This document shows positions 22,410 through 40,916 of a stretch of DNA of 50,372 nt, in pieces (position 1 is the first letter of the stretch; each line of letters begins with the position of its first letter). This stretch comes from an uncultured Methanosarcinales archaeon (GTDB lineage: Archaea; Nanobdellota; Nanobdellia; Woesearchaeales; GW2011-AR9): contig CAYHXT010000002.1 of NCBI GenBank assembly GCA_964360675.1, positions 1-50,372 of the forward strand, written 5' to 3'. Both the position numbers and the translations under genes were made by a program. The notes below the pieces were generated by a model that was given only the letters and a program-made list of their open reading frames with translations, was not told the DNA's origin and made no database searches.

Positions 22410-23420
22410 ATGTTAAAAAGAGGACAAATCACTTTTTTCCTAGTATTAGGTATCATAATTCTGCTAGTTTCAGCCGGATTGTTCTTAGCAATCTCCGCAA
22501 TCAAAAAAGCGCCATTGGAAGTTGAAGAAAAAGAAGCGCAAAAAATACCGGGCGTGCGCGAAACCTTGCGCACGTATGTGGAAAATTGCATTGAAGAAAC
22601 CGTAAGCCCAGCCGTCTATTTGCTGGCAATGCAAGGAGGAATAATTTATCCGGATGAGAACGACAATATTCTGCTGACAGATTACGGGATGATAAATTAT
22701 GCCTGGATCAACGGCCTGGACGGAATCTCTACAGAGAAAATGGAAACGGACTTGGCTGATTATCTGGTGGAAAACATTAATTTTTGTTTAAGGGATTTTG
22801 AAACCTTCGCTAAACAAGAGATCATTATTGTTCCTCATTATGGGGAAATTAGTGCTAAAATCAGAATTCTTCCTTCAGTTATAGATGCCGGAATTAATCT
22901 TCCTTTGGAAGCCACTCTACCCAATGGCGATTATATCAATATTGATTCCTTTTCAGCAAAATTAAACAGTGATGTCTACGAAATGATTGTTTTTATAGAA
23001 GAGCTTAATTTTCCAGCAATCAACCCGGAAGATTTCACTAATGCTCCTTATAAGCCGTCAATCCTTCCTTTTGATGAATCCGTAACCATCTATTCTCTCC
23101 AAAGGAGCGATCCCAAAGAACCGTTGCAATTTATCTTTGCGGTACGTGAAGATTCCGCTTCAAATAATCTGCCTTATCTGGAATTCATTCCGGATAAAAC
23201 TTTCACAGTGGGCGACAGATGGCAGGAAGAATTATCTGCAGCAGATCCAGATAACGATTTGTTAAAATTTTCCTCTTCTTCATCCCAGTTTCCGATTACT
23301 GAGGACGGGGCGATTGACGTTGAAATCACTGAAGCCGGGATATTTGAAATTACTTTCTCAGTCGATGACCATCGCGGCGGAAAGGATCAACAAAAAGTCA
23401 GCGTACTGGTGTTAAAATGA
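22410..23420 (+). CDS. type IV pilin-like (class III signal peptide) protein with a C-terminal cadherin-like domain
   Basis: The N-terminus MLKRGQITFFLVLGIIILLV has a basic residue, Gly, Gln, then a hydrophobic helix, matching an archaeal prepilin-peptidase substrate. The C-terminus has AADPDNDLLKFSSSS...ITFSVDDHRGG, like the cadherin-type units at 2076-5460. The stop overlaps the giant ORF start (ATGA at 23417-23420). Confidence 0.65.
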   Translation: MLKRGQITFFLVLGIIILLVSAGLFLAISAIKKAPLEVEEKEAQKIPGVRETLRTYVENCIEETVSPAVYLLAMQGGIIYPDENDNILLTDYGMINYAWINGLDGISTEKMETDLADYLVENINFCLRDFETFAKQEIIIVPHYGEISAKIRILPSVIDAGINLPLEATLPNGDYINIDSFSAKLNSDVYEMIVFIEELNFPAINPEDFTNAPYKPSILPFDESVTIYSLQRSDPKEPLQFIFAVREDSASNNLPYLEFIPDKTFTVGDRWQEELSAADPDNDLLKFSSSSSQFPITEDGAIDVEITEAGIFEITFSVDDHRGGKDQQKVSVLVLK

Positions 23421-26400
23421 ATAATATGAAGAAAAAAATAGATTCCGCGAAAATTAAACGGTTTCTGGCATCTTTCTTCATTTACCTGATGGTATTCAGC
23501 CCGTTCTCAATAGGGCAGGGTGAATCCGGTGCTGCGGTAAATCAGGAAACAAACCTTCCAACAGAATTTCCTGCAGAAAATATCCAGGATGTTTTTGAAA
23601 ATAATCCCACTCCGGAAAACTTTAACAAACTTCCCAACCCCACTGCCGCAGATTTAGAGTTGGTTCAGAACCCGACGCCGGAAAATTTTAATCATCTTGA
23701 TTCTTCAGAACAGGGAACCTATCTCAGCAACGAAGATAATTTCCGGCAGGATTTTGCCGGTGAGTATTATTCTGATCCCGCTAATTGGGGGGCAAATCCA
23801 GAAGCTGACAAAATATTATTTGCCGGAACAAGATTTAGGGATTTATTAAAAGCCGGAACTTCGCAGGTAAGCGCAGCAGAACAATATTTTTCCGATAATT
23901 TCGGCGCGCCATATACATTAGCGATAGTTGCCGATGATTTCATTTTTGATCAGGAAAACAGAATCTTGAAGAACGGAAAAACAAATTTGAAACTAGATGA
24001 TTATACCGGCGATTCAACCATCACCGAGATCAAAGCTACCGCGGACGGTTTCGAAATTTCCAGAAAAGCTGAAGAAAATGAGCAGGTGATTTCCGTTTCC
24101 GGCGAAGAGGAAAAATCTGTCAGTTACGATTCAGAGAAAGGAACTTTCGCTTTCCAACTGCCGGAAGGAAAACCGCACACTTTCAATGTTCCTGCGGCCG
24201 CCAAAGTAAAATTTGCCTTTGATAAAGACAAGATTACCATCACTGGTCCGGCTTCCGGAATTTTTGAATCGGCGAATGATTATGTTCAATTTGATAATCA
24301 TGCCGGGATACTCGTAATCAACGATAACGGGAACATCGAAGCAGAAAATGCAGAAGTCATCACTTCCCTGCTTTATATGGATGGGCGGTTTGTAAAAACC
24401 GGCAGTCAAATCAAGGCCTGGGACGTAGGAAGCGGCGGCAAACAAACCATAGTCGTCGACAAAAATTCCTGCCCGGTAGAAGGCGGCTGCATCGGCGTGT
24501 CAACATTAGGCCAATGGGATGAAAGGCTTCTTGCGCCCAAAGATAAAAACAGGGCCGGCACTCTTGAAATCAACCTGGATGAAATCGACAGCTCTTCTTC
24601 TTTTTATGTTCCATCCGGGGAACCACAAACCAATGAACAAAAAACCGAACAATTACGTCAACAGGCGACAGAATTAAGAAAACCGCGTGAACCCCCTTTA
24701 TCCGGAAAAGATGCCCATGTATGGATCCACAAAAATCAACAAAGCGGTGAAATAACCGTAACCTCTAAGGGCGTAGTTGAAGTGGGCCTGTATGATGCAA
24801 GGGGAGATGCAGCTTCTCCAGTCAAGGATGATTTTAGATACAAAGGAGTTAACGGATTATCAGAATTAGATATGCAATTTGGCCCCAGAACTCAGACTAA
24901 TGTCCGGGGACAGGCAGAATTGAAAAATTCAGAATTTAGGGGCGGAATCTTAACTAATCAGGACGGAGCCGTGTTTAAAATAACTAACGATAATTTTGGC
25001 TTGACGCAAAATGATATTTTTCGTGCTGACTGTTTTGATTGTCAGCAGGGAGAAGCTATAGTCATCCAGAAGTCTATCGCTATTGCGCAGAAAACAAGTC
25101 TTGCGGGAATATTCTCAGAATCAAAAACGGAAAACGTAAAATTAGTGATAACTGTTGATGAGAACGGGAGAACTAGTTTCAAGCCGGACTTAACCGATCT
25201 GGGCTATCTGGCCAGCCAGGTCCCGAAAGATAATGCACAAGTCTCTATGGGAAGAAATTTTTTTATGTCCGTCCCCTGCGGAAATTTTGAATGTAATTTT
25301 AAACTAACCACTGATCCCAGAACCGGAGATCCCGGAGCAGCTTACGAAATTGTTGATCCTTTAAATCCTGCGCAGCCATTGCAGAGAATTGATTATCCGC
25401 TTACTGCTGGAAAGATGCTGGGCGGAGAAATCATTGTGGTTTCACAGGAAAATGTTGATAACGTCAACAAGCTGGCAGACCTAATCGAAAGCGGGAATTT
25501 CAATCAATTATCTGAGCTTGAATTTGATGAAAATGATCCGCAATATTCTGCCTTAAGGAAAAAAATTCTTCTGGAAACCGGAATTAATCTGGATGAAATT
25601 TCTGATCCAAAGTACGTTTCTGAAATCAACGAAATTGTAACCACGGCTAAACGCTCCCGTGATAATTTCCGGAGTTTAGGGATAGAAGTTGATGCTAACG
25701 GAAACCCCCTGACACTTAAAGATCAGCAGCGTATGCGGGAAATCTTAAGCAAGAACGGCGGGGCGGAATTTGATTTATTGACACGGGCTCAACTTGATTT
25801 AGCCAGGACTCGCATTAAAGAGGTTGCGGCGCAGCTCAGCGCCTGCCAAGGGGACGTATATTGTTCAGTAAAGATGGACGATTTGAAAAAAGCTCAGGCC
25901 GATGCAGGAAAAATTCAAAAGCAAAGGGAAGGAGCTTATGAACGCTGGCAGGCAGCAGAAAGAAAAGCGCAGCTTGAAAAGCAGATCAATGAAGCCCGGG
26001 AAAGACAAAAATCCCCTGATAAAGGCATCGACGATATCGATAAAAGAGAATCGATCGATATAGGAAATAAAATTGTTGCCGCCAATAAACAAAGGACGGA
26101 TTTACAAAGAAGAGTTGAAAGCAGCCGGGAGAATTTTGTTAATTTTAGAGATGAGCTTAGGAAAAATATTGAGGCAGAATTATCCACTGCGCAAAAGATA
26201 GGCATCGATTGGGACAAATTTCGTTATGATACTGACTATGTTGCCGCCGTCCTAAGAGATTTTCGCCTTACAGATGCTGAATTTAAGGTTGGATTTGAAG
26301 ATGTGAAATTTTATTATGATCAATACAATCAGTTTACAGAAGAATCTAATTCTCTTGATCAGAATCTAAAAGATTGGAATTCACAGCAGGAAGCATTAAT

Positions 26401-29400
26401 CACTAAATATCGCTGGGAAGGCAAAGATGATGCCGCGGCAGAGATAGCTTTGTTATCAAAACAATACGGCGAAGCTAATGAAATAATCCAGGCATCTCCG
26501 CTGCTGCCGCCGGAAGTAAGGATTAATCTTGGAGCAAGAGCTCAGCAGCAGATAACTGAAGAATCATTAAATCAGGTTTCTATTCTTTATAATTACGGTT
26601 ATGGCGACCAAGCCGGCCAGATGTTATTGTCGCTGGAAAATGCTGCTCCCGAAATTAAAGAATCAGTTGAATATCAAAAAGCAGTAAAATCTCAATTAAA
26701 ATTTGCTCAAGGGGTTGTTGAAGAAAAGATAAGAGAAGAAGAACAGCTTAGATATAGAGAAATGATGAAGCGTTTTGATGAAAAATTCAGCGCAAGTGTG
26801 AGGTTCAGTAAGGCTTTAAAAAATATCAATTTTAATCCGTCATTTGAAGAATATGAAGAAGGAGTTTTTGGTAAACAGATTTTAGAGGTTATAGGTTCCG
26901 GTTTTTCGGCGACTTTTCAAAGCTCTGAAGAAGTTGGCGCGGAAATCTTGGGAGGATTAGCAAATAGGGAAACACTTAGAACAACCACCGCTAAACTTGA
27001 TGAGCAGGCAGCCGCCGAACATAATCGGCAGATAGAAAACCTTTACGAAATTAGAAATTATCTTAAGGCCTATGATGTCCGCGGCTCATCAGCTATACAG
27101 GCTTTTGCCGATGCTCAAAGTGGAATTAGTGGTGAGCAGGTTTTAATTTCTGACGACCCAACAGCAGCATATCTTCAATTTCAATTGACGGGAGAAGTTT
27201 TCAGCGCGGAAGATAAGGAAAGATTAGCCCGGATGGATAATCCTCTGGACAGGCTTGCTTTTACAACGCAAAAAGAAGAAGAATATTCTGATACTATCAA
27301 AGAGCTTGAATTCAATAAATTGGCGAGAGATGCAGAAAACGCCATCATGTTTAATCGCGGCAAGATGGCTGGTGAACCGGAAGCTAAAATGAGGGAAGCT
27401 ATCTCTGTCTGCCCCGAATGTTCCGGTGCAGAAAATTTTCAGCAAAGGGTTAATCAGCTTGATGAATCAGTTACTAAAGAAATTTTTGGTGAAACTTTCG
27501 GCGGCGCTTTTGAGTGGGCAGGAGTAACTTATACACAAAGAACAGAAGAAGAATTTCGTGATATGGCTATCGCTTCTCTCGATGCAACGATTCTATTTGA
27601 CATTGCTGAAATAGGCTTAGCTCCGCTAGCAATAATAGACGCAGTTAATAAAGTTAAATTTCTTAAAAATGCGGTTAAATTAAAATCTTTCAGCAAGGCC
27701 AGATACGTTGAAAGATTAGAAGAAGCATTCGGAACGGCAGCAGATGTCGCTATTTATGCTTCTAGAGAATCGCGAGCTGCTCTGGATGCAGCTAAGGCCG
27801 CCCAGAGATCGGCCAATACTGCTGATGCAATCGTAGAAGCCAGAAAGTCAGTAGATTTCACTCAGCGGGCGATCGAAGCTGAAGTTGAAGCCGGTCTGGC
27901 AGCTAAAAAATATACTGAAGTCCTCCGAGCCGGGAATCCGTCCGATTTTGATTTAGAAGCACTCATATTACGCAACCGGGGAGTAAACAACATTTATGAT
28001 GAGACAAAAATTCTTAATCAGGCTCAGAGAGAACTTGACGCTGCAAAAAAGATCGGAGATGTTGCTGCAGAACAAAAGGCATTAGCAGCAATCTCTCAAT
28101 CACAAGATACTCTTCAACAAGCTAAAGCGCAAATAAATTATTATGATAATCTTCTTCAGGCATCTAAGATTGCCGGGCCGGAGAAAGGAAAAATCAGGCA
28201 ATTGTGGGACAATACTTTTGGCCAAACCATTGGAGTCAGAAACGGATTAAAATTTGGTTCTGCCGGCGAAGAAGTCATTGCTGCTGAAAAAAATTTCCGC
28301 GTGGCGGCGCAAATATTCAACGAAGCTAAAATTAATGCCCGTTTAATCGGAGATACTGCCGAAGCGGCAGTCTCCAGAGCCAGATTAGCAAGAGCCGAAG
28401 ATACTTTGCTTAAAGCTGCTGACGAAGTTGACACAGCTTATCTCATCAGAAAAGGAGAAATCGGCCGGTCGGTAATCAAATCAAGACTGCAGCAGGCAAG
28501 AGCGGCAAGTCTTTCTGCTAAATCAGATGAATTATTAGCGGCGATTGATTCTGAAGGCATCACTAAACTGGATAATCTGCTTTATAATCCTGTTTTAAGG
28601 TTAGTGCCGGATGGCGCTGGATTAAGATTTGCTGTCAGCGAAGATGCTTCACCAGCATTGAAGCAGTCCGCAATGGAAGGAAACGAATTATTGGCAAAAG
28701 CAGATGAAGCTACGCTTGCCGAAGGCGCAATAACTAGTTCTGCACGGGCAGAAGGAGAAGTTGAACTGGTATTGCTGGAAGGTCTTGCAGACAGCGAGTT
28801 TGCCATAGCTAATGAGGTCAAATCAAAAAGAATTCAGGCTGCTACTGGTGAATTTGTATTAGAAGAAGCGCCCCAAAGAAAAATAATCAATAACGAGCTG
28901 GTTGAACCCTGCAACCTAGCTGCAGCAGCAATTTACGGATTGGCTATTCCTTGTGTAGAACCTAAAGGCGTAACTAAAACGGCGGAAGTTCCGGAAACGC
29001 CTCTCAGCGAAGAATCCACCCGCCTGGCGGAAGAAGTTGCTGTCGTCGAAAGAGCCACCATTCCGCCCCCTGATATAGCTACGCTTCAAAAACCGACTAA
29101 GGAAGGATTGGAACATTTAATTGGCGAAGCAAAAATAGGATTTAAAAAATATAATGCCGGCCGCAGGCAACTGGGTTTAGAACCGGATAAAAGTTTAGAT
29201 GAGTTTGTTAAAGATTACGTCGGGAGAGATTTACAGGATGCAGGCATTGATGCAGGACTTCCTGACGATTTAGTCGGCATCGGCATATCAAAAACCGGCG
29301 ACGAAAAAGTTGATGCCATCATCGACGTGCTTGAAGGAAGAACTTCCGGAGAATTAGATGCTGAAGAACTGAGGAAATTAGAAATCGCCGAAAGTTTAAA

Positions 29401-32400
29401 GATCGGACAGGGCGCAGAAGGAATAGTTTATGCTCTTCCGGACGGTTCGGTCATAAAAGTTAAAAATACAGATAGCGCTATATCAATGCCTTTCCGGGAG
29501 CAGGCCAGAAGATTAAATGCGCTTTGCGAGAAAGGTTTAGCTCCCTGCGTTTCCAGAAGCGGAGAATATTTCTATCAGTCAGAAAGAGCCAGATATAACT
29601 CCGTACAGGATGCTGTTTTGGAGCGGTTGTCAGAAGAGGGCAGAAGGGAATATCTGGAAGTCTATGATTTACGCAGAGCAGACAGAATTACCGAAGATAA
29701 TTATATTGAATTAAGGGCCGCGGTGATCCAAAGGGCCAGAGATGAAGGAAGGCTGAATGATCTGGAACTTGCAGCCGACGATTTCTTTAATAGTTTGAAA
29801 GAATCAAACCTGGAAATCTTAGACCCTTCATGGAAGAATCTGCATTGCGCCAACGAAGAATGCACTAAATTCTTAACCATCGATGTTGGCTTTTCCGTCA
29901 CCGGCGAAAGGTCTAAAATTTTACTGGAAGGTGTGGCTGAAAATTATAAAAATAATCTGCTTAACGGAAAGGGCCAGATCATAGGCGGGGAGAGAGGCCA
30001 GGAATTGATTGATGAAGCTGCTGAAATCTTAAGACGGGAAAGAGATGCCGGAAAAGGAGCGCCTGCAGCCGGAGAAGCCGGCCAAATCCGCCCGTTGACA
30101 GAAGCAGAGATCCAAGATCCGCAAGAATTAGAGGCCTGGAATGAAATTGCCGCCGCCGCCAGATTTTCTGAAGAAAGATTGTCTCTTGAACAGGTGAACA
30201 GATTAGAAGACAACAGATTAAGTATTCCAGAAGATGATTTCTACGCAATAACATTTGATGTTCCTAAGAGTGCGCGCCAGTCGTTAGGCTTTGATGTAGG
30301 TGCGGTCATTAAAGTTCAGTCAGATACTCCGCCTCAGGGCGTGGCTCTGGTGACGGATGAAGCCGACATACTTTCCGATCTAAGCGAAGTTGCGGTACCG
30401 GTGCTGCTGAGGGATGACAGATATTATGTCGTGCAGAAATTTGAAGGTCTGCGCCTGGATGAGATGTCGGCAGATCTACGCGCCAAGATCAGGCCGCAGA
30501 TAGAATCTTTCCGGGAAGCGCTGGTCGCTAAAGGTTATGAAATGGATAATTATGGCGGACTTGTTTACGACTCTTTAAAACGTGAATTGAGATTAATCAA
30601 TCCGCGCGTGGTTAAAAAATCATCTCTGCCGCCGGATGAATTACGTGATTTGCACAACCAGAAAATAGATGACATTCTTAACCGGGGTGTTGTCACGCCG
30701 GAAGAGAAGGCAGAAGCGCTTGCTGAAGCGCGCAGAATATTGGAAGAAGAAGGAGCTTTCGCACGGCCGCCGGTTGAAAATGTTGTTGTTCCGCAAGAAG
30801 CTGCTGCCACAGATTTGGGTTCAGCAAATGCCGGCCAGAATGTCAAGATTCGTTCACGCGAAGACCTGTATGAAGGCAGTTTACTCAGTAAAGAAGGCGA
30901 TAATATTATCATTGAGACTACTGAACCTCGCGGCGGCATATTTGGAGCAATACTTCCTGACCGAAAAATACAGCAGCAGATCCCTCTTGAGGATGTTATT
31001 ATTTACGGAGAACAAGTACACATTCGTTCGGTTTCGAAGAGGGGCGTGAATAGGCAGGAACTAATCGGAGATGTCTACGTAGGAAATTATTTGGGAGAAA
31101 ACAATGCTTATCTCTACCTTAGTGTAAATGGAAAACCGACGAGGATTCATAAGGCCAATCTTGATCTTGGCAGTCTCGACAAAGCGATTGTTTCAGATCC
31201 GGCTTCTGAATTTATACTTAACCAGCAGAAGATCCTTGACCAAGTCAATAGAGTGCCGATCGTCGACGGGCGGCAGGTACTAATCGTCCATGTCGATCCA
31301 AACAGCCTGCGAATACAAGGTGTGGGCGCTGTTCCTTCGGAAGTGTCCGGCAACAGCGTTCCTGTACGCATGGTTATTGATGCTGAGACGGGACGGATCG
31401 CTGATGTCGTTGGCGAAGAGAGGATTGCGAAACAGTATCGTGGTGCTTTAGTAAACAAACCATTATACGAAGAATTAAGTATTGTAAGAAGAGATATTGT
31501 TAATGGTTGCGCCATTGCCGGCAGCGCCATCCATGGATTGGCTTTGCCTTGCGCGGATGTTGCTGTGGGGAGATTGGAAGCGGAAGTTCCGGTTCCGGTC
31601 GAATCAGGTGTCGGGATCACGGGGCCAACTTTAGATCCAGAATTAAGAAAATGGAAAGAAGGAGTTTCCGGGAATAATCTGGAAAACATTGTTGAGAGGG
31701 GAAAAACATTATCTCCCGGACAAGAGTTTCAGGTTGGAGAAGATATAGGGTTTAGTTTTATAACCAAAGATGGAGAGGCGGTAGAAGCTGTTGAACGATT
31801 GAAATATGGCCCCTCCGGATTTACTATTGAAGTAAGGAGAGCAGATAATAATGAATATATTGCTTCACATGACTATCAATTAATTATGGGTGGAGATAGG
31901 TTGGGAGTAGAATCAACTTATGTGGTTGAAAAATATCAAGAAGCGGGAATAAATCAAAGAATTTTCCAGCAGATGTCGGAAATTCATTCTAATGTTCCAG
32001 AAGTTGAAGCGAGTTTAGGATATGATAACAGATTGATCTATGGTAATTTCATCATAAATAACCCAGATGCAACAGCACTTGATGCTTTGAAACAAACACC
32101 AGCCCATAAAATCAGGGAAAGAACTGGCTGGGAAGTAGATCTTGAAAAATCTAATCTGCCTAATTCAATCGTGTATAAAAGAGCAGAAGTTGCTCCTGAA
32201 ATTTCGCCTATCAGAGAGTCCATTCCTCCAGAAGTATCCGGCGTAATGATAGTATCGCAAAAAGGAGAACTTTCTCAAATCGACGATGTGGGAATAAAAG
32301 AGTTGCCCGTAATCAATCTTGAAGAAGAACTGATCCCCGAAGAGGTGATAACTGTTAATAACGTTATTGCTGAAAGCGACGGGATAGTGGTTCGTTCGAA

Positions 32401-35400
32401 CAATAATCTTTATTTTATCAGCGACGAAGGAATTTATCCGGTGGGGATGGATAAGGAATATTCTTTCCGGCCAAAGAAAGCTGGAGGGCAAGTCAGCCTT
32501 CCTCCGGAACAGGAATCCGCATTGAAAACTATTTATGGACAAGTTAAGCTGAACCAAAGAGATGCTCAAGTATTAAATCAGCAGGACAAATTCGGTTTGC
32601 TTTTAATTGAAGCTGCTAAGGATAAAAAAATTCAAATCCAGACCGGCAGCGGGGCTTTAGATCATTTAATGATAAATTCTCACGGTTCCCATGATAATTA
32701 CCTGAAAGAATTGGATCGAGTAATTGAAAATAATGATAATCTCAAATATCTGCATGAGCAGTTCAGGCAGCAGGGTATCGAACCTCTTACCACCGTTAAA
32801 AATCCTTATCCTGATGAAAGATTGGACATTGCCGCAACATATAATCCAAGATATGAAGCTGTTGACGGTTCTTTTGTGGAAGGTTCATTTACCTATAGAA
32901 TTTTTGCGACAGAAGAAGAACTTTTAGATTATACTCGCAGGATCACCGGGCGCGAAATTGAGGATGTTGAAGAAGCTAAAAAATTAATCGCGGAAAGCCA
33001 GGTTAAAGGAGTAGCGGGACACGAAGCAGCTCATCATGCATTCTACAGGATGCTAGATGAAGAAGAAAGGATATTTTTTACGGACTATGTCTGGAGTACT
33101 GATGATGAAGCTCTGGTTAAAGCAAGGGAATTTATCGGATCTCGACCAGTTTATGCAAAAACTTCAGAAATATCAGAAGAATTATACCAAAGTATAATTG
33201 CCAATGAAGTTTTTGCATACAGATTAGATTTCAATATGCAGGGCATAGGCTTGCATAGTGATTTAAATGTCCTCCCCTCCGAAAGAGAATTAGCTATTTT
33301 TGAGCAGTTTGAGGTGCTGCCTCCTAAAGAAAAAAGAATCCCTGCTTTAGTCAATAACATTGCGCTTCAGCCGCCGCAATCATTCGCAGACATAACAGCA
33401 GAAGGGCAATGGTTTAGGGCAAGATTAAATGACGGAACTTCTGTCGAAGGCAGATTTTCCAGGATTGAAGGCGATGAAATAGTGTTCACAAGATATGAAC
33501 GAAGAGAAGGCCTGCTGAGCTGGTTTTTAGATGACAAAATTGAACCCGGAACCAGAATCAGCAGGAATGATTTTGAGCCGTCAAGTTTGATTGTTGGTGG
33601 AAGAACAAACGTGAGATTTTCAACCAGCAAGGGAACATTTTATGGTCGATATTCAGGAGACAGCCCGGACGGGATTAAAATACTTGATTCTTCTGGAAAT
33701 GAAATAATTGTTCCAAGAAAAGGATTAATCAAAGATTCTGTCGTTGCTCAGGGTGAAGTAATTGAAATTAAGGCTGTCGATAACGTTGCAGCATACAATG
33801 GCAGGTATCTGGCTGAAACGGACACAGAGATATATTTAGATGTCGATGGCAAGGTCACTAAACTAAGTAAAAACAATTTAGACTTAACTACACTGCAGAA
33901 GAAAGAATTTGCGGAAGAACTGGGCGTTCCTCCAGTTTCTGCGGAAGCAGGAGTTGGGTTGGGCGAACAGATTCTTGATGTTCTTCCCGCAGATTTCAAA
34001 CGCGAAACTTCTGCAGTTTACAAAAGCGAAGGTCTCTTTGAATTAAACGGTAAAATCTACCGCCGGGGCTCTGAGGGAAATTGGAAGCAGAAAAGAGAAG
34101 GATTCTGGAGTTTTCTCGGAGATAAAGATATCTCTGACGAAGAGTATTTTGATGTAGCGGAAGAATTAAACATCGCTGAATCAAATGCATTTCCGCAAAA
34201 AACAGCAGCAAAAGTTCCTTCTGAAACTTATTCTGCTCCGGAAGTTTTCACGGGGGGACAGATGGTTCCCGATAAAGAAATAGCTGAATTTTTTGATAAC
34301 GCCGATATCAATTGTCCGACCGGCGGAGCTTTAGTAGGACAAGCTGCTGCAGGACCCTGTAATTTTGAAATCAGCACCGGAAGAAAAAGATTATCCAACT
34401 TGAAGGAAGGCGATGAGGTTCGTCTGGTATCTTTAAGGGGGAATCATTATTACGGTGAATTTATATTTGCAGACGAGAATACTTTATTATTAAGGCTTCC
34501 GGATAGTACTCAAAATCAAATTAGGCTGGATAGGATTGATTTGAACAGCCTGGTTTCTCAGGATAATTTTGTCAGGATAATAAGAACTGATGGAACTTCA
34601 GCTTTTGGCAAATATGCCGGGGAAGGGGAAGAGTATATCCGGCTGATTGATGCCAATAGAAATATCATTCTTTTAGATAAAAATAATCTCCGATATGATT
34701 CGCTGGTATCGGCAGGCGATGAGATTGAAATGACTTCGCTCCGCGGCTCTTCAATCAAGGGCGTATTTTCTTCAGAGTCAGAAACGCATATTTTTTATCT
34801 TGACGAAAATGGTTTTCCCAGAAAAGCCGGCAAGGATCAGCTTGCGGATGTTAAAAGAATAATTTATGAACCCCTGGCTGCTGATGAGATAAGCAGTGAT
34901 TTTATTATTGATAATCAACAATTATTTGCCAAAAATCCTTCTTACGCTTTAGGGTTGGATGAACCTGCTTCAGAACCAATCGCTTATAAAAAAATAATGT
35001 TTTCCGATGGGATTAGAAGAGAAGTTCACTATTCATTAAATGACCTAAAAATTGCTGAAGATGTCGGGCTTATTTATGAAAATGTTCCTCCTGCGAGGCT
35101 TAAACGGGGGCAAGGATATACTTATGTGGTGTTGAATGATGGTTCTTTAGTCTTTGGCGAGGTTCATGATGGCCTGGAATTTGGTGTCAAGCATCTGCAT
35201 CTGGCTAACGGAAAGCCGGTCAAAGCGGCCGGTGAAATCTTTATCGATGAATCCGGAAGATATTTATTCAATCTGGAAAGCGGATCTTTCACTCTGGTAT
35301 TAAGGCGGGAATATCGTGTTAGTGAAGGATTATTAAGAGAACAAATGCATGATGTTTTCTATCGATATTTTGGTCAGGACGGAAATTATATCAAAGCTGT

Positions 35401-37561
35401 TATTAATAAGCCCGTTCGCCCTTCATTAGATGAATTAGCAGACCTTTGCTTTAAAAATCAAGGAATAAGGCTGCCTATCTGCGGAAGTAATAGAGATATT
35501 AAACAATTAATTGAAGAGAAGTATCCGGGCTGGGGTGTTTCTGAAGCAGTCGAACCATGCGCCGTCGCCGGCAAGGCCATTTTCGGATTGGCTCCATGTC
35601 TTAGCTCTTCCAGGAATATTATCGATTTAGATGAAGCTGAACCTATCCCTCTCGAAAGAATAATCTCCACAGAGAGAATTTCAGGGATTAAAGCAACACT
35701 TACCGATCCAACCAGTTTGATGGTGCCCGGAGAAGATGATTGGAACGATATGGTAACTATTATTAAAAAACATGAAAAAGAAACAGCTTTGTCGGAGTCA
35801 GACTTAGAAGAATTAATAGAAAATTCTGGCGGGTACATTGGTCGCGGTGCAGAAGGCGTAGTTCTTGCCGTTCCTGAAGAGGTAAGAGTTGCGCTGGGAA
35901 TCAACAAGCCGGCAGTGATAAAAATTAGAAATTATATTAAACCTACGGTCGAGGATGTTGCTAACACTTTCCCTGAGCAGGCAGAACTTCTAAACAGCAT
36001 GGCCGGCAAGGGGGTGGCGCCGGAAGTGTACAAGTCGGGAGAAAATTATTACATTGACGAGAAGTTGGAAGGCGAAACCATTCGAAACTTGATGTATAAG
36101 TCTTTAAGCCCAGAGCAGCTGAAAGCATACAAGCTAGCAAAGGATGATAAAGAAAAAAAACTTATACTTGCAACTGCTCTTTCACCAGAACAAAAAGCGC
36201 AGTTAAATATATTGCTGGATGAGCTTACCGATACCTTAGCTGAATCCGGAGTTGCCATTGATGATTTCCATGGGGGGAATGTAATGCTGGTGCAGACTCC
36301 AGAAGGGACTAAAGCAAAAGTTGTGGATTTGGGATATGCATATACCGACGATTCAGAAACTTTAAGAACGCTGTACGACATCAAGAAAAGAAAACTGATG
36401 GCTGCCGGGGGCTATGAAGCTGATGCAGAAAAACTTATAAAAATCAGGGTAACCCAAAGGCGCGCGGCAGAGAATACTATCGATTTCTCCAGCGATTTCC
36501 CTCTAGAAACGGAAGCTTTAGAAATTGCTGAGGTCAGGCAATTAAAAAGCGCATTACGGGCTATCAGTGTAGAAAATGAAAAAGTATTTTCATACATTGT
36601 CAGCGCTGGTGAAGGGCAGCGGGTGCGAAGGATATACGAGGCCAATTTAGATCCGCTTGGAGTAGCGCTGAAGCTTGACGCTGAAGGAGTATCTCATTCA
36701 GGGGAAGGAATTTTTGAATACCGTGGAAATAAATTTATCCGCGATCAGGAAGCCGGATGGGTAGAGAAGAGAAGGTTCTGGTTTGATAAAAAAGCTGATG
36801 CAGACACCGCCGAGCTGCTGGATGCTGAAAAATCAAGGCTGCTGGAAGAAGGGTTGTTTCCACTTCCTGAAGTTCGACTGGGATCCTGTCCCCGTGCAGG
36901 CGGCGCGATAGTCGGCGGCGCAGGACAAGTTCCCTGCATACCTTTTGGTTTATCCTTGGAAGAGGTAGTGATGAGATTGCCTCCTGCTGAACTTCCAAGG
37001 CCGCAAGTTGTTTCAAAAGTTGCCGGATATGATAATACGGTAAGTAATCTTTACGATAGCATAACTACTGAAAACGTTGAAGAAATCTTCCAAAATAAGC
37101 TGGAGCATCTTGGTACAGAAATCTACGGGGGAAAAGCGATTGCTTATATCCATGACGACGGAAGGGTGCAGGTAGTGTTCCTTACAGAAACGGAAAAGAC
37201 GCACCACCGCCAAGCTTTGGGAACGATTATCGGCGGGGAGAAAGGAAAATTAGTCTACGAAGGGCAATACGATAACTATTTGATTGGTGATCTAACTGAA
37301 AGGTCTTTCGGCTTTTCATTTCAATACGATAAATCTACTGGTAAAATAATCGGCATCCAGGCAAGTTCGCAGATATCTAATCTTCAAAAAAGCAAGGGCG
37401 CAACCGGATGGACGCTTCCTGAACCGGTGATTAGTTTTGTCGAACAGGAGATGCTGGAAAGGATAGATCTAGATTTAATCGACGAATTTTTAGTTGACAG
37501 CCCCATCAATGAATGGATCGACAAAAACAGACTGCCGGTTGCGGCTGCCGAAGCAAATTAG
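23417..37561 (+). CDS. giant secreted mosaic protein (4,714 aa)
   Basis: A single uninterrupted frame of 14,145 nt. Signal-like N-terminus (FLASFFIYLMVFSPFSIGQG). A beta-rich region is followed by about 1,000 aa that are A/E/K/Q-rich and coiled-coil-like. Two protein-kinase-like domains, an HExxH module, eight repeats of about 50 aa and five Cys-bracketed G/A loops are present. All antisense ORFs inside are short and low-complexity. Confidence 0.85.
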   Translation: MNNMKKKIDSAKIKRFLASFFIYLMVFSPFSIGQGESGAAVNQETNLPTEFPAENIQDVFENNPTPENFNKLPNPTAADLELVQNPTPENFNHLDSSEQGTYLSNEDNFRQDFAGEYYSDPANWGANPEADKILFAGTRFRDLLKAGTSQVSAAEQYFSDNFGAPYTLAIVADDFIFDQENRILKNGKTNLKLDDYTGDSTITEIKATADGFEISRKAEENEQVISVSGEEEKSVSYDSEKGTFAFQLPEGKPHTFNVPAAAKVKFAFDKDKITITGPASGIFESANDYVQFDNHAGILVINDNGNIEAENAEVITSLLYMDGRFVKTGSQIKAWDVGSGGKQTIVVDKNSCPVEGGCIGVSTLGQWDERLLAPKDKNRAGTLEINLDEIDSSSSFYVPSGEPQTNEQKTEQLRQQATELRKPREPPLSGKDAHVWIHKNQQSGEITVTSKGVVEVGLYDARGDAASPVKDDFRYKGVNGLSELDMQFGPRTQTNVRGQAELKNSEFRGGILTNQDGAVFKITNDNFGLTQNDIFRADCFDCQQGEAIVIQKSIAIAQKTSLAGIFSESKTENVKLVITVDENGRTSFKPDLTDLGYLASQVPKDNAQVSMGRNFFMSVPCGNFECNFKLTTDPRTGDPGAAYEIVDPLNPAQPLQRIDYPLTAGKMLGGEIIVVSQENVDNVNKLADLIESGNFNQLSELEFDENDPQYSALRKKILLETGINLDEISDPKYVSEINEIVTTAKRSRDNFRSLGIEVDANGNPLTLKDQQRMREILSKNGGAEFDLLTRAQLDLARTRIKEVAAQLSACQGDVYCSVKMDDLKKAQADAGKIQKQREGAYERWQAAERKAQLEKQINEARERQKSPDKGIDDIDKRESIDIGNKIVAANKQRTDLQRRVESSRENFVNFRDELRKNIEAELSTAQKIGIDWDKFRYDTDYVAAVLRDFRLTDAEFKVGFEDVKFYYDQYNQFTEESNSLDQNLKDWNSQQEALITKYRWEGKDDAAAEIALLSKQYGEANEIIQASPLLPPEVRINLGARAQQQITEESLNQVSILYNYGYGDQAGQMLLSLENAAPEIKESVEYQKAVKSQLKFAQGVVEEKIREEEQLRYREMMKRFDEKFSASVRFSKALKNINFNPSFEEYEEGVFGKQILEVIGSGFSATFQSSEEVGAEILGGLANRETLRTTTAKLDEQAAAEHNRQIENLYEIRNYLKAYDVRGSSAIQAFADAQSGISGEQVLISDDPTAAYLQFQLTGEVFSAEDKERLARMDNPLDRLAFTTQKEEEYSDTIKELEFNKLARDAENAIMFNRGKMAGEPEAKMREAISVCPECSGAENFQQRVNQLDESVTKEIFGETFGGAFEWAGVTYTQRTEEEFRDMAIASLDATILFDIAEIGLAPLAIIDAVNKVKFLKNAVKLKSFSKARYVERLEEAFGTAADVAIYASRESRAALDAAKAAQRSANTADAIVEARKSVDFTQRAIEAEVEAGLAAKKYTEVLRAGNPSDFDLEALILRNRGVNNIYDETKILNQAQRELDAAKKIGDVAAEQKALAAISQSQDTLQQAKAQINYYDNLLQASKIAGPEKGKIRQLWDNTFGQTIGVRNGLKFGSAGEEVIAAEKNFRVAAQIFNEAKINARLIGDTAEAAVSRARLARAEDTLLKAADEVDTAYLIRKGEIGRSVIKSRLQQARAASLSAKSDELLAAIDSEGITKLDNLLYNPVLRLVPDGAGLRFAVSEDASPALKQSAMEGNELLAKADEATLAEGAITSSARAEGEVELVLLEGLADSEFAIANEVKSKRIQAATGEFVLEEAPQRKIINNELVEPCNLAAAAIYGLAIPCVEPKGVTKTAEVPETPLSEESTRLAEEVAVVERATIPPPDIATLQKPTKEGLEHLIGEAKIGFKKYNAGRRQLGLEPDKSLDEFVKDYVGRDLQDAGIDAGLPDDLVGIGISKTGDEKVDAIIDVLEGRTSGELDAEELRKLEIAESLKIGQGAEGIVYALPDGSVIKVKNTDSAISMPFREQARRLNALCEKGLAPCVSRSGEYFYQSERARYNSVQDAVLERLSEEGRREYLEVYDLRRADRITEDNYIELRAAVIQRARDEGRLNDLELAADDFFNSLKESNLEILDPSWKNLHCANEECTKFLTIDVGFSVTGERSKILLEGVAENYKNNLLNGKGQIIGGERGQELIDEAAEILRRERDAGKGAPAAGEAGQIRPLTEAEIQDPQELEAWNEIAAAARFSEERLSLEQVNRLEDNRLSIPEDDFYAITFDVPKSARQSLGFDVGAVIKVQSDTPPQGVALVTDEADILSDLSEVAVPVLLRDDRYYVVQKFEGLRLDEMSADLRAKIRPQIESFREALVAKGYEMDNYGGLVYDSLKRELRLINPRVVKKSSLPPDELRDLHNQKIDDILNRGVVTPEEKAEALAEARRILEEEGAFARPPVENVVVPQEAAATDLGSANAGQNVKIRSREDLYEGSLLSKEGDNIIIETTEPRGGIFGAILPDRKIQQQIPLEDVIIYGEQVHIRSVSKRGVNRQELIGDVYVGNYLGENNAYLYLSVNGKPTRIHKANLDLGSLDKAIVSDPASEFILNQQKILDQVNRVPIVDGRQVLIVHVDPNSLRIQGVGAVPSEVSGNSVPVRMVIDAETGRIADVVGEERIAKQYRGALVNKPLYEELSIVRRDIVNGCAIAGSAIHGLALPCADVAVGRLEAEVPVPVESGVGITGPTLDPELRKWKEGVSGNNLENIVERGKTLSPGQEFQVGEDIGFSFITKDGEAVEAVERLKYGPSGFTIEVRRADNNEYIASHDYQLIMGGDRLGVESTYVVEKYQEAGINQRIFQQMSEIHSNVPEVEASLGYDNRLIYGNFIINNPDATALDALKQTPAHKIRERTGWEVDLEKSNLPNSIVYKRAEVAPEISPIRESIPPEVSGVMIVSQKGELSQIDDVGIKELPVINLEEELIPEEVITVNNVIAESDGIVVRSNNNLYFISDEGIYPVGMDKEYSFRPKKAGGQVSLPPEQESALKTIYGQVKLNQRDAQVLNQQDKFGLLLIEAAKDKKIQIQTGSGALDHLMINSHGSHDNYLKELDRVIENNDNLKYLHEQFRQQGIEPLTTVKNPYPDERLDIAATYNPRYEAVDGSFVEGSFTYRIFATEEELLDYTRRITGREIEDVEEAKKLIAESQVKGVAGHEAAHHAFYRMLDEEERIFFTDYVWSTDDEALVKAREFIGSRPVYAKTSEISEELYQSIIANEVFAYRLDFNMQGIGLHSDLNVLPSERELAIFEQFEVLPPKEKRIPALVNNIALQPPQSFADITAEGQWFRARLNDGTSVEGRFSRIEGDEIVFTRYERREGLLSWFLDDKIEPGTRISRNDFEPSSLIVGGRTNVRFSTSKGTFYGRYSGDSPDGIKILDSSGNEIIVPRKGLIKDSVVAQGEVIEIKAVDNVAAYNGRYLAETDTEIYLDVDGKVTKLSKNNLDLTTLQKKEFAEELGVPPVSAEAGVGLGEQILDVLPADFKRETSAVYKSEGLFELNGKIYRRGSEGNWKQKREGFWSFLGDKDISDEEYFDVAEELNIAESNAFPQKTAAKVPSETYSAPEVFTGGQMVPDKEIAEFFDNADINCPTGGALVGQAAAGPCNFEISTGRKRLSNLKEGDEVRLVSLRGNHYYGEFIFADENTLLLRLPDSTQNQIRLDRIDLNSLVSQDNFVRIIRTDGTSAFGKYAGEGEEYIRLIDANRNIILLDKNNLRYDSLVSAGDEIEMTSLRGSSIKGVFSSESETHIFYLDENGFPRKAGKDQLADVKRIIYEPLAADEISSDFIIDNQQLFAKNPSYALGLDEPASEPIAYKKIMFSDGIRREVHYSLNDLKIAEDVGLIYENVPPARLKRGQGYTYVVLNDGSLVFGEVHDGLEFGVKHLHLANGKPVKAAGEIFIDESGRYLFNLESGSFTLVLRREYRVSEGLLREQMHDVFYRYFGQDGNYIKAVINKPVRPSLDELADLCFKNQGIRLPICGSNRDIKQLIEEKYPGWGVSEAVEPCAVAGKAIFGLAPCLSSSRNIIDLDEAEPIPLERIISTERISGIKATLTDPTSLMVPGEDDWNDMVTIIKKHEKETALSESDLEELIENSGGYIGRGAEGVVLAVPEEVRVALGINKPAVIKIRNYIKPTVEDVANTFPEQAELLNSMAGKGVAPEVYKSGENYYIDEKLEGETIRNLMYKSLSPEQLKAYKLAKDDKEKKLILATALSPEQKAQLNILLDELTDTLAESGVAIDDFHGGNVMLVQTPEGTKAKVVDLGYAYTDDSETLRTLYDIKKRKLMAAGGYEADAEKLIKIRVTQRRAAENTIDFSSDFPLETEALEIAEVRQLKSALRAISVENEKVFSYIVSAGEGQRVRRIYEANLDPLGVALKLDAEGVSHSGEGIFEYRGNKFIRDQEAGWVEKRRFWFDKKADADTAELLDAEKSRLLEEGLFPLPEVRLGSCPRAGGAIVGGAGQVPCIPFGLSLEEVVMRLPPAELPRPQVVSKVAGYDNTVSNLYDSITTENVEEIFQNKLEHLGTEIYGGKAIAYIHDDGRVQVVFLTETEKTHHRQALGTIIGGEKGKLVYEGQYDNYLIGDLTERSFGFSFQYDKSTGKIIGIQASSQISNLQKSKGATGWTLPEPVISFVEQEMLERIDLDLIDEFLVDSPINEWIDKNRLPVAAAEAN
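29370..29990 (+). other. protein-kinase-like domain 1 inside the giant ORF
   Basis: Glycine loop IGQGAEG (29402-29422), VIKVK lysine (29456-29458), catalytic-loop-like DPSWKN (about 29822-29839) and Mg-binding-like IDVG (about 29878-29889). Confidence 0.55.
33020..33034 (+). other. HExxH zinc-metallopeptidase motif inside the giant ORF
   Basis: GVAGHEAAHHAFY, with H-E-A-A-H at codons 3202-3206. A possible third ligand Glu lies in IANEVFAY about 65 aa downstream. Confidence 0.5.
35790..36420 (+). other. protein-kinase-like domain 2 inside the giant ORF
   Basis: Glycine loop IGRGAEG (35837-35857), VIKIR lysine (35921-35923), DDFHGGN catalytic-loop-like segment (about 36260-36282) and VVDLGYA (about 36321-36341). 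Confidence 0.6.
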
Positions 37562-37609
37562 CAGAATAAGATCCCCCTGGGATAAATCACAGGAATTCGG
37601 GCAGGTAAC

Positions 37610-38233
37610 TTATTTTTTTCCGGACAGTTTCTTCAGATGCAAATATCTGGAATCATCATCAAAAATCATGTACGTCTGCAGCTGATTCCAGTACAAGCCT
37701 ACGCCGCCGGGATTGATTAAATATCTTGAGTGCGGCTTTAAGCTGACCATTCCACCAGCCAGCCCTATTTCGGTGATTTTTCTTTGTTCATCTTCGCAAA
37801 ATAAAGTCGGTTGGTGCGAATGGCCAAAAAAACAAATGTCAATAAAAGCCGGCAATCGTTCAAATACTTCTTTTGCCTGTTCCACGGTCAATATCCGTTC
37901 ATTAAATGGTGCGTGAATCAAGTAATAATTGAAAAAGAAGTGATTTAAAGGCAGGGAAGCCAAGTATTCTAAATTTCCTGGAGTTATTTTAGCAGCTATT
38001 TTATTGCCAGTATTAGTGCTGCCGGCAAGAACCTTTTCTTCGTGATTTCCACGGACAGCCAGGCATCCATTTTTTATCACGGCATCAATGCAGCGGTGGT
38101 CATCATACGATGTCCCGTTCTGTACTATGTCTCCTAAACAAAAGTATTGGTCAATATCATCTTTTGTTTCAGCAAAGAATCTTTCCAAAGCTTCATAGTT
38201 TCCTTGTACATCTGAAAATATTCCATAGCGCAT
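37610..38233 (-). CDS. calcineurin-like metallophosphoesterase (YfcE/MJ0936-type)
   Basis: Ordered motifs FSDVQGN, LGDIVQNG, RGNHE and FGHSH. 207 aa. Confidence 0.8.
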   Translation of the reverse strand: MRYGIFSDVQGNYEALERFFAETKDDIDQYFCLGDIVQNGTSYDDHRCIDAVIKNGCLAVRGNHEEKVLAGSTNTGNKIAAKITPGNLEYLASLPLNHFFFNYYLIHAPFNERILTVEQAKEVFERLPAFIDICFFGHSHQPTLFCEDEQRKITEIGLAGGMVSLKPHSRYLINPGGVGLYWNQLQTYMIFDDDSRYLHLKKLSGKK

Positions 38234-40190: not shown

Positions 40191-40916
40191 ATGAGAGTAA
40201 TAATCTTTATGATGGTTCTTTCTTTATTTTTGATTTCCTGCGGGCAAAGCGGACAAAACATTCCTGCAGAAACGCAAGACAGCAGCATTAAGGTTGCAAA
40301 TGAATCCGCAGAGACTATCGCCGGAACTGCCTGTACTGCGCACTGGGAATGCTTTGATGACGAATACAAAGTATATCAATTAGAGAACTGCACCAGGACG
40401 CAAACCACTAAATGCGAAAGAGGCTGCGTAAACGGCACCTGTCAAGCGGCTCCGATATGCACCGTCGGATTCAAGTGCATGAATGAAAACAGATACGGCT
40501 ATCAAAGGGAAGATTGTTCTTTCATCAACAAGAAAACCTGCGAAGGGGGATGCGTGAATAATAAATGTCTGGAAAAACCAGCAAATGCATCTAATATTAC
40601 TGGATCCGTTCCCGTTTTACCGGCTAATTCTTATGCGCAGGAAAACCAGGAAGAGAATTCAACTGAAACTCCCAAAACAATCCGCACCATTCAATTAGGC
40701 GAACAGCAGGAAATAGAGATTGACGGGACGAAACACAACATCAGTATTTACAATCTGGAGCCGGAATGGGCGGTGGTGAAAGTTGACGGCGTCAAAAGCA
40801 ATGAATTATCCGCAGGCGAACAGTTCACTTACGCAAACATCGGCGTAACTATCCGGATAGAAGCGATAATGTTCCAAGCATATGGAATAAAGGCAATTGA
40901 TTACAGCGTCAGCTAG
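40191..40916 (+). CDS. secreted lipoprotein with two 6-Cys modules
   Basis: Signal plus lipobox MVLSLFLISCG. Two paralogous modules, CTAHWECFDDEYKVYQLENCTRTQTTKCERGCVNGTCQ and CTVGFKCMNENRYGYQREDCSFINKKTCEGGCVNNKCL. A C-terminal beta-rich domain follows. Confidence 0.65.
   Translation: MRVIIFMMVLSLFLISCGQSGQNIPAETQDSSIKVANESAETIAGTACTAHWECFDDEYKVYQLENCTRTQTTKCERGCVNGTCQAAPICTVGFKCMNENRYGYQREDCSFINKKTCEGGCVNNKCLEKPANASNITGSVPVLPANSYAQENQEENSTETPKTIRTIQLGEQQEIEIDGTKHNISIYNLEPEWAVVKVDGVKSNELSAGEQFTYANIGVTIRIEAIMFQAYGIKAIDYSVS

Follow-up and report, generated by a model that had tools for sequence, protein, structure and literature searches.

Cysteine-bracketed Gly/Ala-rich loops as a probable connector between exchangeable cassettes of a giant archaeal protein

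Background

AB toxins such as diphtheria toxin (C186-C201), botulinum neurotoxin (light/heavy chain) and the Shiga and cholera toxins (A1/A2) carry a nicking loop, an exposed stretch bordering functional parts between two cysteines 12 to 25 residues apart; the loop is nicked, and the parts are then released on reduction. In the very large secreted MARTX toxins, tandem effectors that differ by strain are combined with RTX repeats and a C80 cysteine protease, and the sites between effectors are unstructured, Leu-containing linkers, not Cys-stapled loops. Polymorphic toxins bear short junction motifs, VENN in CdiA and PxxxxDPxGL in Rhs. Here we describe a Cys-bracketed, Gly/Ala-rich loop that occurs five times in the product of a giant open reading frame (ORF), carried on a 50,372-nucleotide stretch of archaeal DNA (contig CAYHXT010000002.1 of GenBank assembly GCA_964360675.1, GTDB lineage Woesearchaeales; hereafter the window). 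A first-pass annotation, made from the letters alone, had singled out the five loops as dividing the ORF into modules, and we find that they are very probably a conserved connector at the junctions of exchangeable cassettes.

In polymorphic toxin systems an N-terminal trafficking part and stalk is followed by variable C-terminal domains and a downstream immunity gene (Zhang et al. 2012, PMC3482391). The giant protein resembles these systems in its signal-like N-terminus (judged by eye), in a collinear stalk of about 1,830 amino acids (aa), in a short conserved motif where this constant N-terminal stalk meets variable C-terminal domains, and in C-terminal domains that vary among syntenic orthologues and recur at the C-termini of unrelated proteins. 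Unlike the polymorphic-toxin junction motifs, its motif is Cys-bracketed, Gly/Ala-rich and present three to five times per protein between tandem cassettes; moreover the host is an archaeon, and no immunity gene follows the giant gene in the window or in seven related loci. The loops share with those of AB toxins the bracketing cysteines and the location at borders between functional parts, but AB-toxin loops are hydrophilic, contain basic furin- or trypsin-type sites and occur once per toxin, whereas the five described here are uncharged and 51% Gly+Ala. As in MARTX toxins, tandem cassettes are present and their set varies among relatives, but neither RTX-type repeats nor a C80 cysteine protease were detected with Pfam and NCBIfam (whole protein at E<=1, segments at E<=10). 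The connector is like the polymorphic-toxin junction motifs in role and like the AB-toxin loops in design, and matches neither in sequence or composition. By analogy, the giant protein would work in the way of polymorphic toxins with a stalk or of multi-effector proteins such as MARTX, but it lacks defining features of both.

Little is understood of how DPANN archaea attach to and act on their hosts, and most of their giant genes lack annotation. The SPEARE giants of Nanohaloarchaeota, in the parts of Hamm et al. 2019 (PMC6642349) drawn on here, are described as mostly extracytoplasmic, multi-domain proteins of 4,000-8,500 aa proposed to act on the host, with serine protease, laminin-G adhesion and type III restriction enzyme/restriction-endonuclease domains and a transmembrane anchor. 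The protein of the window is likewise a giant multi-domain protein of a DPANN archaeon, but none of the SPEARE Pfam domains named in those parts was detected in it, and the same parts describe no Cys-loop connector for SPEARE proteins.

Five loops of one design in a 4,714-residue protein

The giant ORF and its loops are as follows.

23417..37561, + strand: giant ORF, 4,714 codons (4,714 aa); signal-like N-terminal segment at aa 1-35; 26 Cys in 13 close pairs
28910..28954, + strand: loop A1, aa 1832-1846 (C1832-C1846), CNLAAAAIYGLAIPC, then a Pro/Glu-rich linker
31508..31552, + strand: loop A2, aa 2698-2712 (C2698-C2712), CAIAGSAIHGLALPC, then the linker AEVPVPVESG
34313..34360, + strand: loop B1, aa 3633-3648 (C3633-C3648), CPTGGALVGQAAAGPC
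35558..35599, + strand: loop A3, aa 4048-4061 (C4048-C4061), CAVAGKAIFGLAPC, then the linker EAEPIPLE and RISGIK
36887..36937, + strand: loop B2, aa 4491-4507 (C4491-C4507), CPRAGGAIVGGAGQVPC

The five Cys-bracketed Gly/Ala loops lie exactly at the nucleotide and residue positions given by the first-pass annotation, which had further proposed two classes (A and B) of a single design, Pro- and acid-rich linkers, and a homologous block ahead of each class B loop. The linkers are present in the giant protein, motif comparison in relatives bears out the two classes, and the pre-B blocks are found at aa 3538-3566 (nucleotides, nt, 34028-34114) and aa 4430-4458 (nt 36704-36790), beginning 95 and 61 aa ahead of the loop cysteine of B1 and B2, respectively; aligned over aa 3520-3593 and 4411-4482 they are homologous (E=4e-5). 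The annotation had known of no named motif of this kind, and neither a Pfam nor an NCBIfam model covers the loops.

To count loops we used a filter of C-x9-18-C with at least 35% Gly+Ala and at most one charged residue. With five loops observed, 2,966 of 3,000 full shuffles of the giant protein held none and no shuffle held more than two; the maximum was again two when the Cys positions were kept fixed. Gly+Ala make up 51% of the loop interiors versus 16% of the whole protein, and charged residues 2 of 67 (0-1 per loop) versus 28%. All five loops are among the eleven longest charge-free runs of the protein, three of the four such runs of at least 20 residues are loops (the fourth is the signal peptide), and no 13-mer outside the signal peptide is more hydrophobic than A1. 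Applied in six frames to the 50-kb window, the filter also picked up, beyond the giant ORF, the two looser stretches CGSLSAGHLIAKAC (nt 4634) and CNFAAGISGASRHC (nt 18069), neither with the A-[IV]-x-G-[LM]-A core; all five core-bearing loops of the window belong to the giant ORF. The pattern is far beyond chance, which is excluded as its source.

All 26 cysteines of the giant protein pair up, in 13 pairs with a spacing of 3-16 aa, an arrangement seen in 0 of 200,000 random placements; besides the five loops, the pairs are of the types CxxC (twice), Cx4-6C and Cx10C. Below, P numbers denote retrieved related proteins and L numbers related loci or ORFs from metagenome-assembled genomes (MAGs). 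In the close relatives P0002, P0007-P0009, P0016, P0024, P0026 and P0052 and in the L-ORFs, all or nearly all Cys stand in close pairs. The N-terminal pairs are kept in relatives and, where lost, are lost jointly; C1332/C1335 is missing as a pair in P0003 and P0008. The signal-like N-terminus, read by eye without a predictor, is the most hydrophobic segment of the protein, and beyond this signal peptide there is neither a hydrophobic segment of transmembrane length nor a C-terminal membrane anchor. We infer from this N-terminus, as judged by eye, that the protein is probably secreted or exported.

The loop motif in related proteins

The giant protein, searched whole and as ten segments, gave nothing significant against PADLOC or against Pfam and NCBIfam, the latter two at E<=1 for the whole protein and E<=10 for the segments. 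A look-up of its exact sequence gave no match among public assemblies. An exhaustive HMMER search with its aa 3515-4714 found 202 proteins at E<=0.001, many of them giants of 2,000-5,700 aa. A word-index homology search returned no match for aa 1780-2760, two for aa 4400-4714 and nine for a profile of CT1, one of the domains listed below; a genome-contig scan with a single-protein query and a metagenome-contig scan with an N-terminal alignment gave no match, the peptide patterns being too specific.

About 60 copies of the motif are found in related ORFs of giant size, 2,000-4,700 aa, from Woesearchaeota/Nanoarchaeota-type MAGs, namely in the proteins P0002, P0003, P0005-P0010, P0014, P0016, P0021, P0024, P0025 and P0052 and the loci L004-L014, L032, L053 and L215-L220. 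The class A consensus is G-V-S-[DE]-x-V-[EDN]-P-C-x-[VIL]-A-[AG]-[AG]-A-I-x-G-[LM]-A-x(0-2)-C, and that of class B is L-P-x-P-[ED]-x-x-L-x-S-C-[PS]-x-[AG]-G-A-[IL]-V-G-x-A-x-x-x-P-C. Thirty non-redundant class A loops share an upstream VSDxVxP and a linker enriched in Pro, Glu and Thr (Pro 10.4% versus 4.3%); class B loops come after a small beta/alpha block. The linker after either class is extended and rich in Pro, Glu, Thr and Val, and is often followed by x-[IV]-S-G-[VIA]-R, which in about one third to one half of class A junctions takes the form x-[IV]-S-G-[VIA]-R-[IVL]-K after the Pro/Glu linker. In the window the element sits about 20-35 aa past class A loops, as RISGIK at about 35669-35686 and ESGVGI at about 31598-31615. 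The same x-[IV]-S-G element also occurs once after a loop-free linker (EVSGVM, about 32234-32251).

Every one of 33 non-redundant motif cores is bracketed by Cys, one of them in a long B-type loop in which the first Cys sits 7 residues upstream, and both loop cysteines are obligatory in the family. The first-pass annotation had asked whether orthologues conserve these cysteines at the junctions, and whether the pattern is common by chance. Orthologues keep both cysteines and the junction position, and in DNA-pattern scans covering one genome per GTDB species the closed loop is not common: two such scans found it only in ORFs longer than 1,300 aa of this archaeal group, apart from a chance match in L036 that is out of frame, in a 91-aa ORF. 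Bacterial look-alikes comprised five matches to AAAAIYGLA and about 100 to a Melainabacteria protein, none with the closing Cys; the latter arose from a broad degenerate DNA pattern for the GGAIxG[LM]A variant. The best explanation is that the motif is specific to a giant, putatively secreted protein family of Woesearchaeota/Nanoarchaeota-type DPANN archaea. The loci L016-L092 (Gastranaerophilales / Melainabacteria MAGs) encode a conserved bacterial protein with C-[LI]-F-G-G-G-A-I-R-G-[LMI]-A, unrelated to the archaeal loops.

The A1 core AAAAIYGLA is near-invariant in eight related loci, and A1 is among the eight most conserved 15-residue windows (top 7%) of a 1,900-residue N-terminal alignment, with an identity of 0.59-0.64 versus a mean of 0.37. 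In nine A1-type loops from eight genomes, third-codon positions are 45% identical at identical residues, and the longest DNA run shared by the class A loops of the window is 9 identical bases. Given free synonymous sites and no long shared DNA, selection therefore acts on the peptide, not on the DNA.

Loops at the junctions of exchanged cassettes

Homology to the N-terminal region, which extends as collinear high-scoring segment pairs (HSPs) through P0003, P0008, P0009, P0016, P0002, L216 and L219 at 30-45% identity, stops at A1 in five relatives, and the later parts differ from protein to protein. The cassette after the loop differs in P0024, P0009, P0016 and L219. Among 118 homology ends beyond aa 1700 of the giant protein, 21% lie within 15 aa of a loop versus 7.6% expected, and 32% within 30 aa versus 12.5% expected. 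HSPs of P0052, P0016, P0002 and L014 start or stop within 30 aa of A2, seven HSP ends fall within 1 aa at B1, and twelve fall within 10 aa at A3. The N-terminal region and the parts of the cassettes are laid out as follows.

23450..28909, + strand: conserved N-terminal region, aa 12-1831; beta-rich, then long alpha-helical; collinear in relatives; ends at A1
29294..29986, + strand: kinase-like module 1, about aa 1960-2190; G-loop GQGAEG, VIKV; paralogous to aa 4141-4245 (E=1e-12)
30299..30856, + strand: kinase-like module 2, degenerate and tentative, about aa 2295-2480; aligns with the kinase-like set, without a Gly-rich loop
30869..31186, + strand: internal repeat domain, copy a, aa 2485-2590; resembles aa 3440-3495 (E=8e-8)
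31649..32161, + strand: domain X, aa 2745-2915; after an A loop here, after a B-type loop in P0016, missing at this place in L134
32294..33337, + strand: zincin-like cassette, aa 2960-3307; conserved Glu downstream of HEAAH (aa 3202)
33374..33916, + strand: internal repeat domain, copies b, aa 3320-3500; aa 3364-3488 versus 3687-3809, E=3e-9
33974..34195, + strand: pre-B block 1, aa 3520-3593; kept in P0052, P0016, P0003, L013 and L014
34379..34846, + strand: internal repeat domain, copies c, aa 3655-3810; from self-similarity
34985..35485, + strand: CT1 domain, aa 3857-4023; own C-x10-C tail, C4011-C4022
35714..36421, + strand: kinase-like module 3, about aa 4100-4335; from self-similarity and a PDB profile search
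36647..36862, + strand: pre-B block 2, aa 4411-4482; modelled as a small four-stranded sheet and a helix
36995..37543, + strand: CT2 domain, aa 4527-4709; C-terminal domain

One HSP of P0024 matches the N-terminal region and another the A3 kinase cassette, and the two overlap on the loop itself. P0016 has a B-type loop that links a pre-B block to the domain that comes after A2 in the giant protein, and A and B loops replace each other at one junction (P0016 aa 2650 versus A2). The syntenic orthologue L219 has retained the N-terminal region together with the final two cassettes (aa 4041-4710 of the giant protein, 50% identity). Between them, two zincin-like cassettes take the place of the kinase cassette and domain X, and the L219 loops (aa 1603, 2498, 2848 and 3311) lie at the junctions. 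L134, which is 60-85% identical, is without domain X after A2 and has other sequence after the A3 loop. A B-type loop stands ahead of CT2 in P0002, P0005, P0006, P0009, P0010 and L215-L220. Of the giant relatives with CT2, only the most distant, L221, lacks it, and stand-alone CT2 proteins do not have it either. These alignments show that orthologues differ by gain, loss and reordering of cassettes, all downstream of an N-terminal region of about 1,830 aa that stays constant. The connector stands between these cassettes (kinase-like, zincin-like, CT1 and CT2), each of which is an independently folding unit. L134 (ENA ERZ1286166 contig_6371) is the closest long-contig relative, split by frameshifts into many small gene calls, and probably comes from long-read data; pieces of such giants also stand as separate genes in public annotation, for example P0004, P0011 and P0015.

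The first-pass annotation had placed the loops exactly where the sequence character changes. The internal-repeat map and the relatives agree with this for the loops themselves, but some domain boundaries of the giant protein are loop-free (at about aa 1960, 2190, 2915-2960, 3310, 3510 and 4335). A stretch between two loops is a multi-domain cassette of several domains.

Domains of the cassettes

In the kinase-like modules VIK comes after a Gly-rich loop, and [IV]-D-x-G after a D-x-H-x-x-N-like stretch. With a kinase-like profile searched against PDB, protein kinases or their kinase domains make up most of the 59 listed matches, the best at E=0.001; as single sequences, the segments gave chance-level PDB matches only. 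Within the zincin-like cassette, HEAAHH at 33020-33037 and the downstream Glu form a gluzincin-like HExxH + Glu arrangement without a Pfam match. HExxH and E(V/L)F(A/T)xR are kept in P0026 and in copies a and b of P0052; copy c keeps HExxH, and its extracted segment stops before the Glu motif. Relatives carry one to three copies of the cassette (P0026, P0052 and L219, the last with two). No known toxin, pre-toxin or releasing-peptidase Pfam family matches the giant protein, the HExxH...E cassette being conserved and matching no family.

CT1 (motif G-V-K-H...A-G-E...N-x-x-S-G) occurs in 105 of 150 retrieved proteins, mostly at the extreme C-terminus; it forms the C-terminal part of more than 80 unrelated proteins and ends in C-x9-10-C. 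CT2 (motif Y-G-x-K-A...F-L-T-E...T-H-H-R) occurs in 32 retrieved proteins, again mostly C-terminal, and also in stand-alone proteins of 270-320 aa. A PT-HINT domain is present in one and an intein-splicing domain in two of 71 CT1/CT2 carriers. Foldseek matched CT1 to uncharacterised viral proteins of giant viruses and phages (E=1e-8); it gave no significant PDB match for CT1 or CT2, nor did a CT1 profile against PDB sequences. That CT1 and CT2 end unrelated proteins is the signature of polymorphic-toxin C-terminal domains.

In AlphaFold2 models CT1 and CT2 reach a predicted local distance difference test score (pLDDT) above 90. Modelled with the family alignment, residues 93-103 of the B2 loop (model residues 92-108) are coil with pLDDT <50, between the helix that ends the pre-B block and the confident CT2; A3 (model residues 192-205) and its linker are likewise coil with pLDDT <50, after the confident CT1. 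The alignments at the modelled loops are shallow, with two to six sequences. The coil predicted at A3 and B2 agrees with a flexible, exposed connector and with a hinge or a processing site, and would be compatible with membrane contact.

Proposed role of the loops and alternative explanations

We propose that loop and linker form a disulfide-stapled, exposed connector between exchangeable effector cassettes. On the exported protein the loop cysteines would form a disulfide, closing 12-15 small, uncharged residues into an exposed loop with the Pro/Glu linker as a spacer. The loop could then be a recognised processing point, cut by a protease favouring small residues, which might be the zincin cassette of the protein itself or an enzyme of the host or a partner; until reduction, the cut cassettes would stay tethered by the disulfide, as in the nicked loops of AB toxins, and the cassettes would be released singly at or in the host cell. 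To the whole of this reading, a stapled connector between exchangeable effector cassettes that is probably a processing or release point, we give a rough probability of 45%. Of its parts, disulfide formation by the loop cysteines appears somewhat better than even; that the loop is a point of processing or release, argued from the likeness to AB toxins, we hold to be rather unlikely.

Several observations weigh against this proposal. The loops carry 0-1 charged residues, unlike the hydrophilic, basic-site nicking loops of AB toxins. The conservation of AAAAIYGLA exceeds the need of a simple cleavage site and suggests a specific partner or a structural role. In a BLAST comparison with the giant protein, the zincin-like cassette was not detected in several loop-bearing relatives (P0009, P0016 and P0002), which excludes it as a general processing enzyme. 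Nor can extracellular disulfides be taken for granted, because the habitat appears to be groundwater and probably anoxic. The low pLDDT of the modelled loops may only mirror the shallow alignment, and the enrichment of breakpoints near loops is given without a p-value because HSP ends are not independent events.

The loops might instead be membrane-active, the Gly/Ala loops dipping into the host membrane to anchor or translocate cassettes in the manner of viral internal fusion loops. Such viral loops, known from Ebola GP2 and avian sarcoma/leukosis virus, measure about 35-45 residues, are richer in aromatics and occur once per protein as part of a membrane-anchored coiled-coil fusion machine. 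Both kinds are Cys-bracketed, Gly/Ala-rich and uncharged with an aromatic centre, and AAAIYGLAIP of A1 resembles GAAIGLAWIP of Ebola. Apart from the signal peptide, no part of the 28%-charged protein is as hydrophobic and free of charge as the loops, and class A has a conserved Y/H/F/V at its centre and [AG]xxxG (small-xxx-small, GxxxG-like) spacing. On the Wimley-White interfacial scale the sums are -0.95 (A1), -0.29 (A2), +0.21 (A3), +1.85 (B1) and +2.68 (B2) kcal/mol, against -2.9 for the HIV fusion peptide and -1.3 for the Ebola core; per residue, A1 (-0.07 kcal/mol) equals the Ebola GP2 loop core. Cultured DPANN members are episymbionts (PMC6642349), and a membrane-active loop would suit an episymbiont, which must reach a host cell. 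Nevertheless, A2 and A3 are about neutral at the interface and class B, which is not interfacially hydrophobic, is unfavourable there (+1.9 and +2.7 kcal/mol); the loops have only 12-15 residues and at most one aromatic, the five copies lie at cassette junctions rather than one on a dedicated fusion or translocation domain, and the protein has no C-terminal membrane anchor. We consider a membrane role unlikely. Equally doubtful is a passive hinge, in which loop and Pro/Glu linker are a rigid, protease-resistant spacer without a recognition role, copied along with the cassettes. The low-confidence coil between confident domains, the Pro/Glu/Thr-rich linker and the joint travel of cassettes and their loops would suit such a spacer; but spacers drift fast, yet the 25-residue motif is kept across proteins of 30-45% identity while synonymous change is free, and other domain boundaries of the giant protein have no loop.

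Strict conservation also suggests an enzyme-sized recognition site, and some loops finish in L-A-[A/S/G]-C, so that a modifying enzyme (a sortase- or archaeosortase-like transpeptidase, or lipidation) might cut the cassettes and join them to lipid or the envelope. The V-[EDN]-P with its short hydrophobic Gly/Ala/Leu stretch, and L-A-[AGS]-C at the end of the loop, are loosely like PEP-CTERM-type sorting signals and lipoboxes. Unlike PEP-CTERM/PGF-CTERM signals, however, which combine a motif, a hydrophobic helix of about 20 residues and a basic cluster at the extreme C-terminus, the sites of the giant protein are internal, their hydrophobic stretch has 12-15 residues, and an acidic Pro-rich linker takes the place of the basic cluster. 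Pro stands right before the second Cys in most loops, including all three class A loops of the window, unlike in a lipobox, and no sortase-like gene was seen adjoining the giant gene; such an enzyme site is improbable. Least probable by far, and close to negligible, is an origin of the loops as chance low-complexity stretches or as DNA repeats serving as sites of homologous recombination. Cassettes are clearly exchanged at the loop points, which speaks for this reading, but shuffled proteins never gave more than two loops, at most 9 consecutive bases are identical among the loops of the window, synonymous sites differ freely, and the Cys bracket is invariant.

Further readings were set aside: a lipobox, Pro usually preceding the second Cys; an intein or HINT domain, no HINT features following the first Cys; Asp-Pro/Asn-Pro self-cleavage, the residue before Pro being Glu, Asp and Asn in 10, 10 and 7 of 30 loops; and a thioether crosslink, the three radical-SAM genes of the window lying more than 7 kb from the giant gene and not being syntenic with it. 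Because the residue before Pro varies (mostly Glu or Asp, about a quarter Asn), no single labile bond is conserved.

A bolder version of the proposed stapled connector, which we regard as unlikely, would make the loops delivery devices of a DPANN episymbiont, either redox-gated latches that free the kinase-like, protease-like and other effector cassettes singly in the reducing host cytoplasm or fusion-loop-like membrane inserters, and the giant protein a tool to manipulate or breach hosts. If true, it would be a long-sought molecular tool of Woesearchaeota-type archaea on their hosts, with a modular principle not described in any toxin family. Should the loops prove to be release or membrane devices, they would represent a new, archaeal design principle for multi-effector proteins. 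The analysis gives an unannotated 4,714-residue protein a readable architecture of stalk, three kinase-like modules, zincin-like cassette, two widespread C-terminal domains and connector, and the 25-residue connector provides a search key for splitting other giant archaeal proteins into cassettes. Since the connector is short enough to synthesise and the predictions for its cysteines, namely a disulfide, nicking and release on reduction, are clear, its function is directly testable without a cultured organism.

The locus and its neighbouring genes

The order CorA, L15e, a 336-aa pilin-like ORF, the giant gene and a convergent metallophosphoesterase gene (20528-38233 of the window) is conserved in related MAGs (L135-L140, L215-L221), with the ribosomal protein L15e gene, which marks the genome as archaeal, 1.1 kb upstream of the giant gene. 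Both in the window and in each of the seven related loci examined, the metallophosphoesterase gene lies at or just past the 3' end of the giant gene; in L219, L220 and L221 it is separated from the giant gene by a different ORF on the opposite strand. No same-strand small (immunity-like) ORF directly follows the giant gene in the window or in seven related loci. Because the gene order is conserved and no such ORF follows it, the giant gene is a core chromosomal gene of the lineage and not part of a mobile toxin-immunity island. The ORF directly ahead of it is the following.

22410..23420, + strand: 336-aa ORF overlapping the start of the giant ORF by 4 nt; N-terminus MLKRGQITFFLVLGIIILL

Its N-terminus, MLKRGQ followed by a hydrophobic stretch, resembles by eye an archaeal type IV pilin (class III) signal, and in L137 and L140 a homologue of 54-58% identity immediately precedes the orthologue of the giant gene. 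The product of this pilin-like ORF may be a partner of the giant protein.

The L15e of the window is 78-81% identical to that of MAGs titled Nanoarchaeota or Candidatus Nanoarchaeia and 79-80% identical to that of MAGs titled 'uncultured Methanosarcinales archaeon', which have the same giant-gene family and a G+C content of 0.40-0.43. The Methanosarcinales-titled loci are L006, L012, L014, L032, L135, L140, L215-L217 and L219 (contigs CAYJQD01, CAYRMP01, CAYHVV01 and CAYIZT01). Those MAGs look like Nanoarchaeota/Woesearchaeota-type genomes, and the title would appear to be wrong or a placeholder.

Other genes of the window lie at 5501-7102 (- strand) and at 2076-5460, 39134-40186 and 40191-40916 (+ strand); among them are two PKD/cadherin-like surface proteins, a eukaryotic-type topoisomerase I core and a YkuD L,D-transpeptidase that carries a peptidoglycan-binding domain, here in an archaeon. 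A 241-aa ORF of the window encodes 13 cysteines and a lipoprotein-like N-terminus, and its homologues are found 0.75-1.9 kb downstream of the giant gene in L215, L216, L217 and L219.

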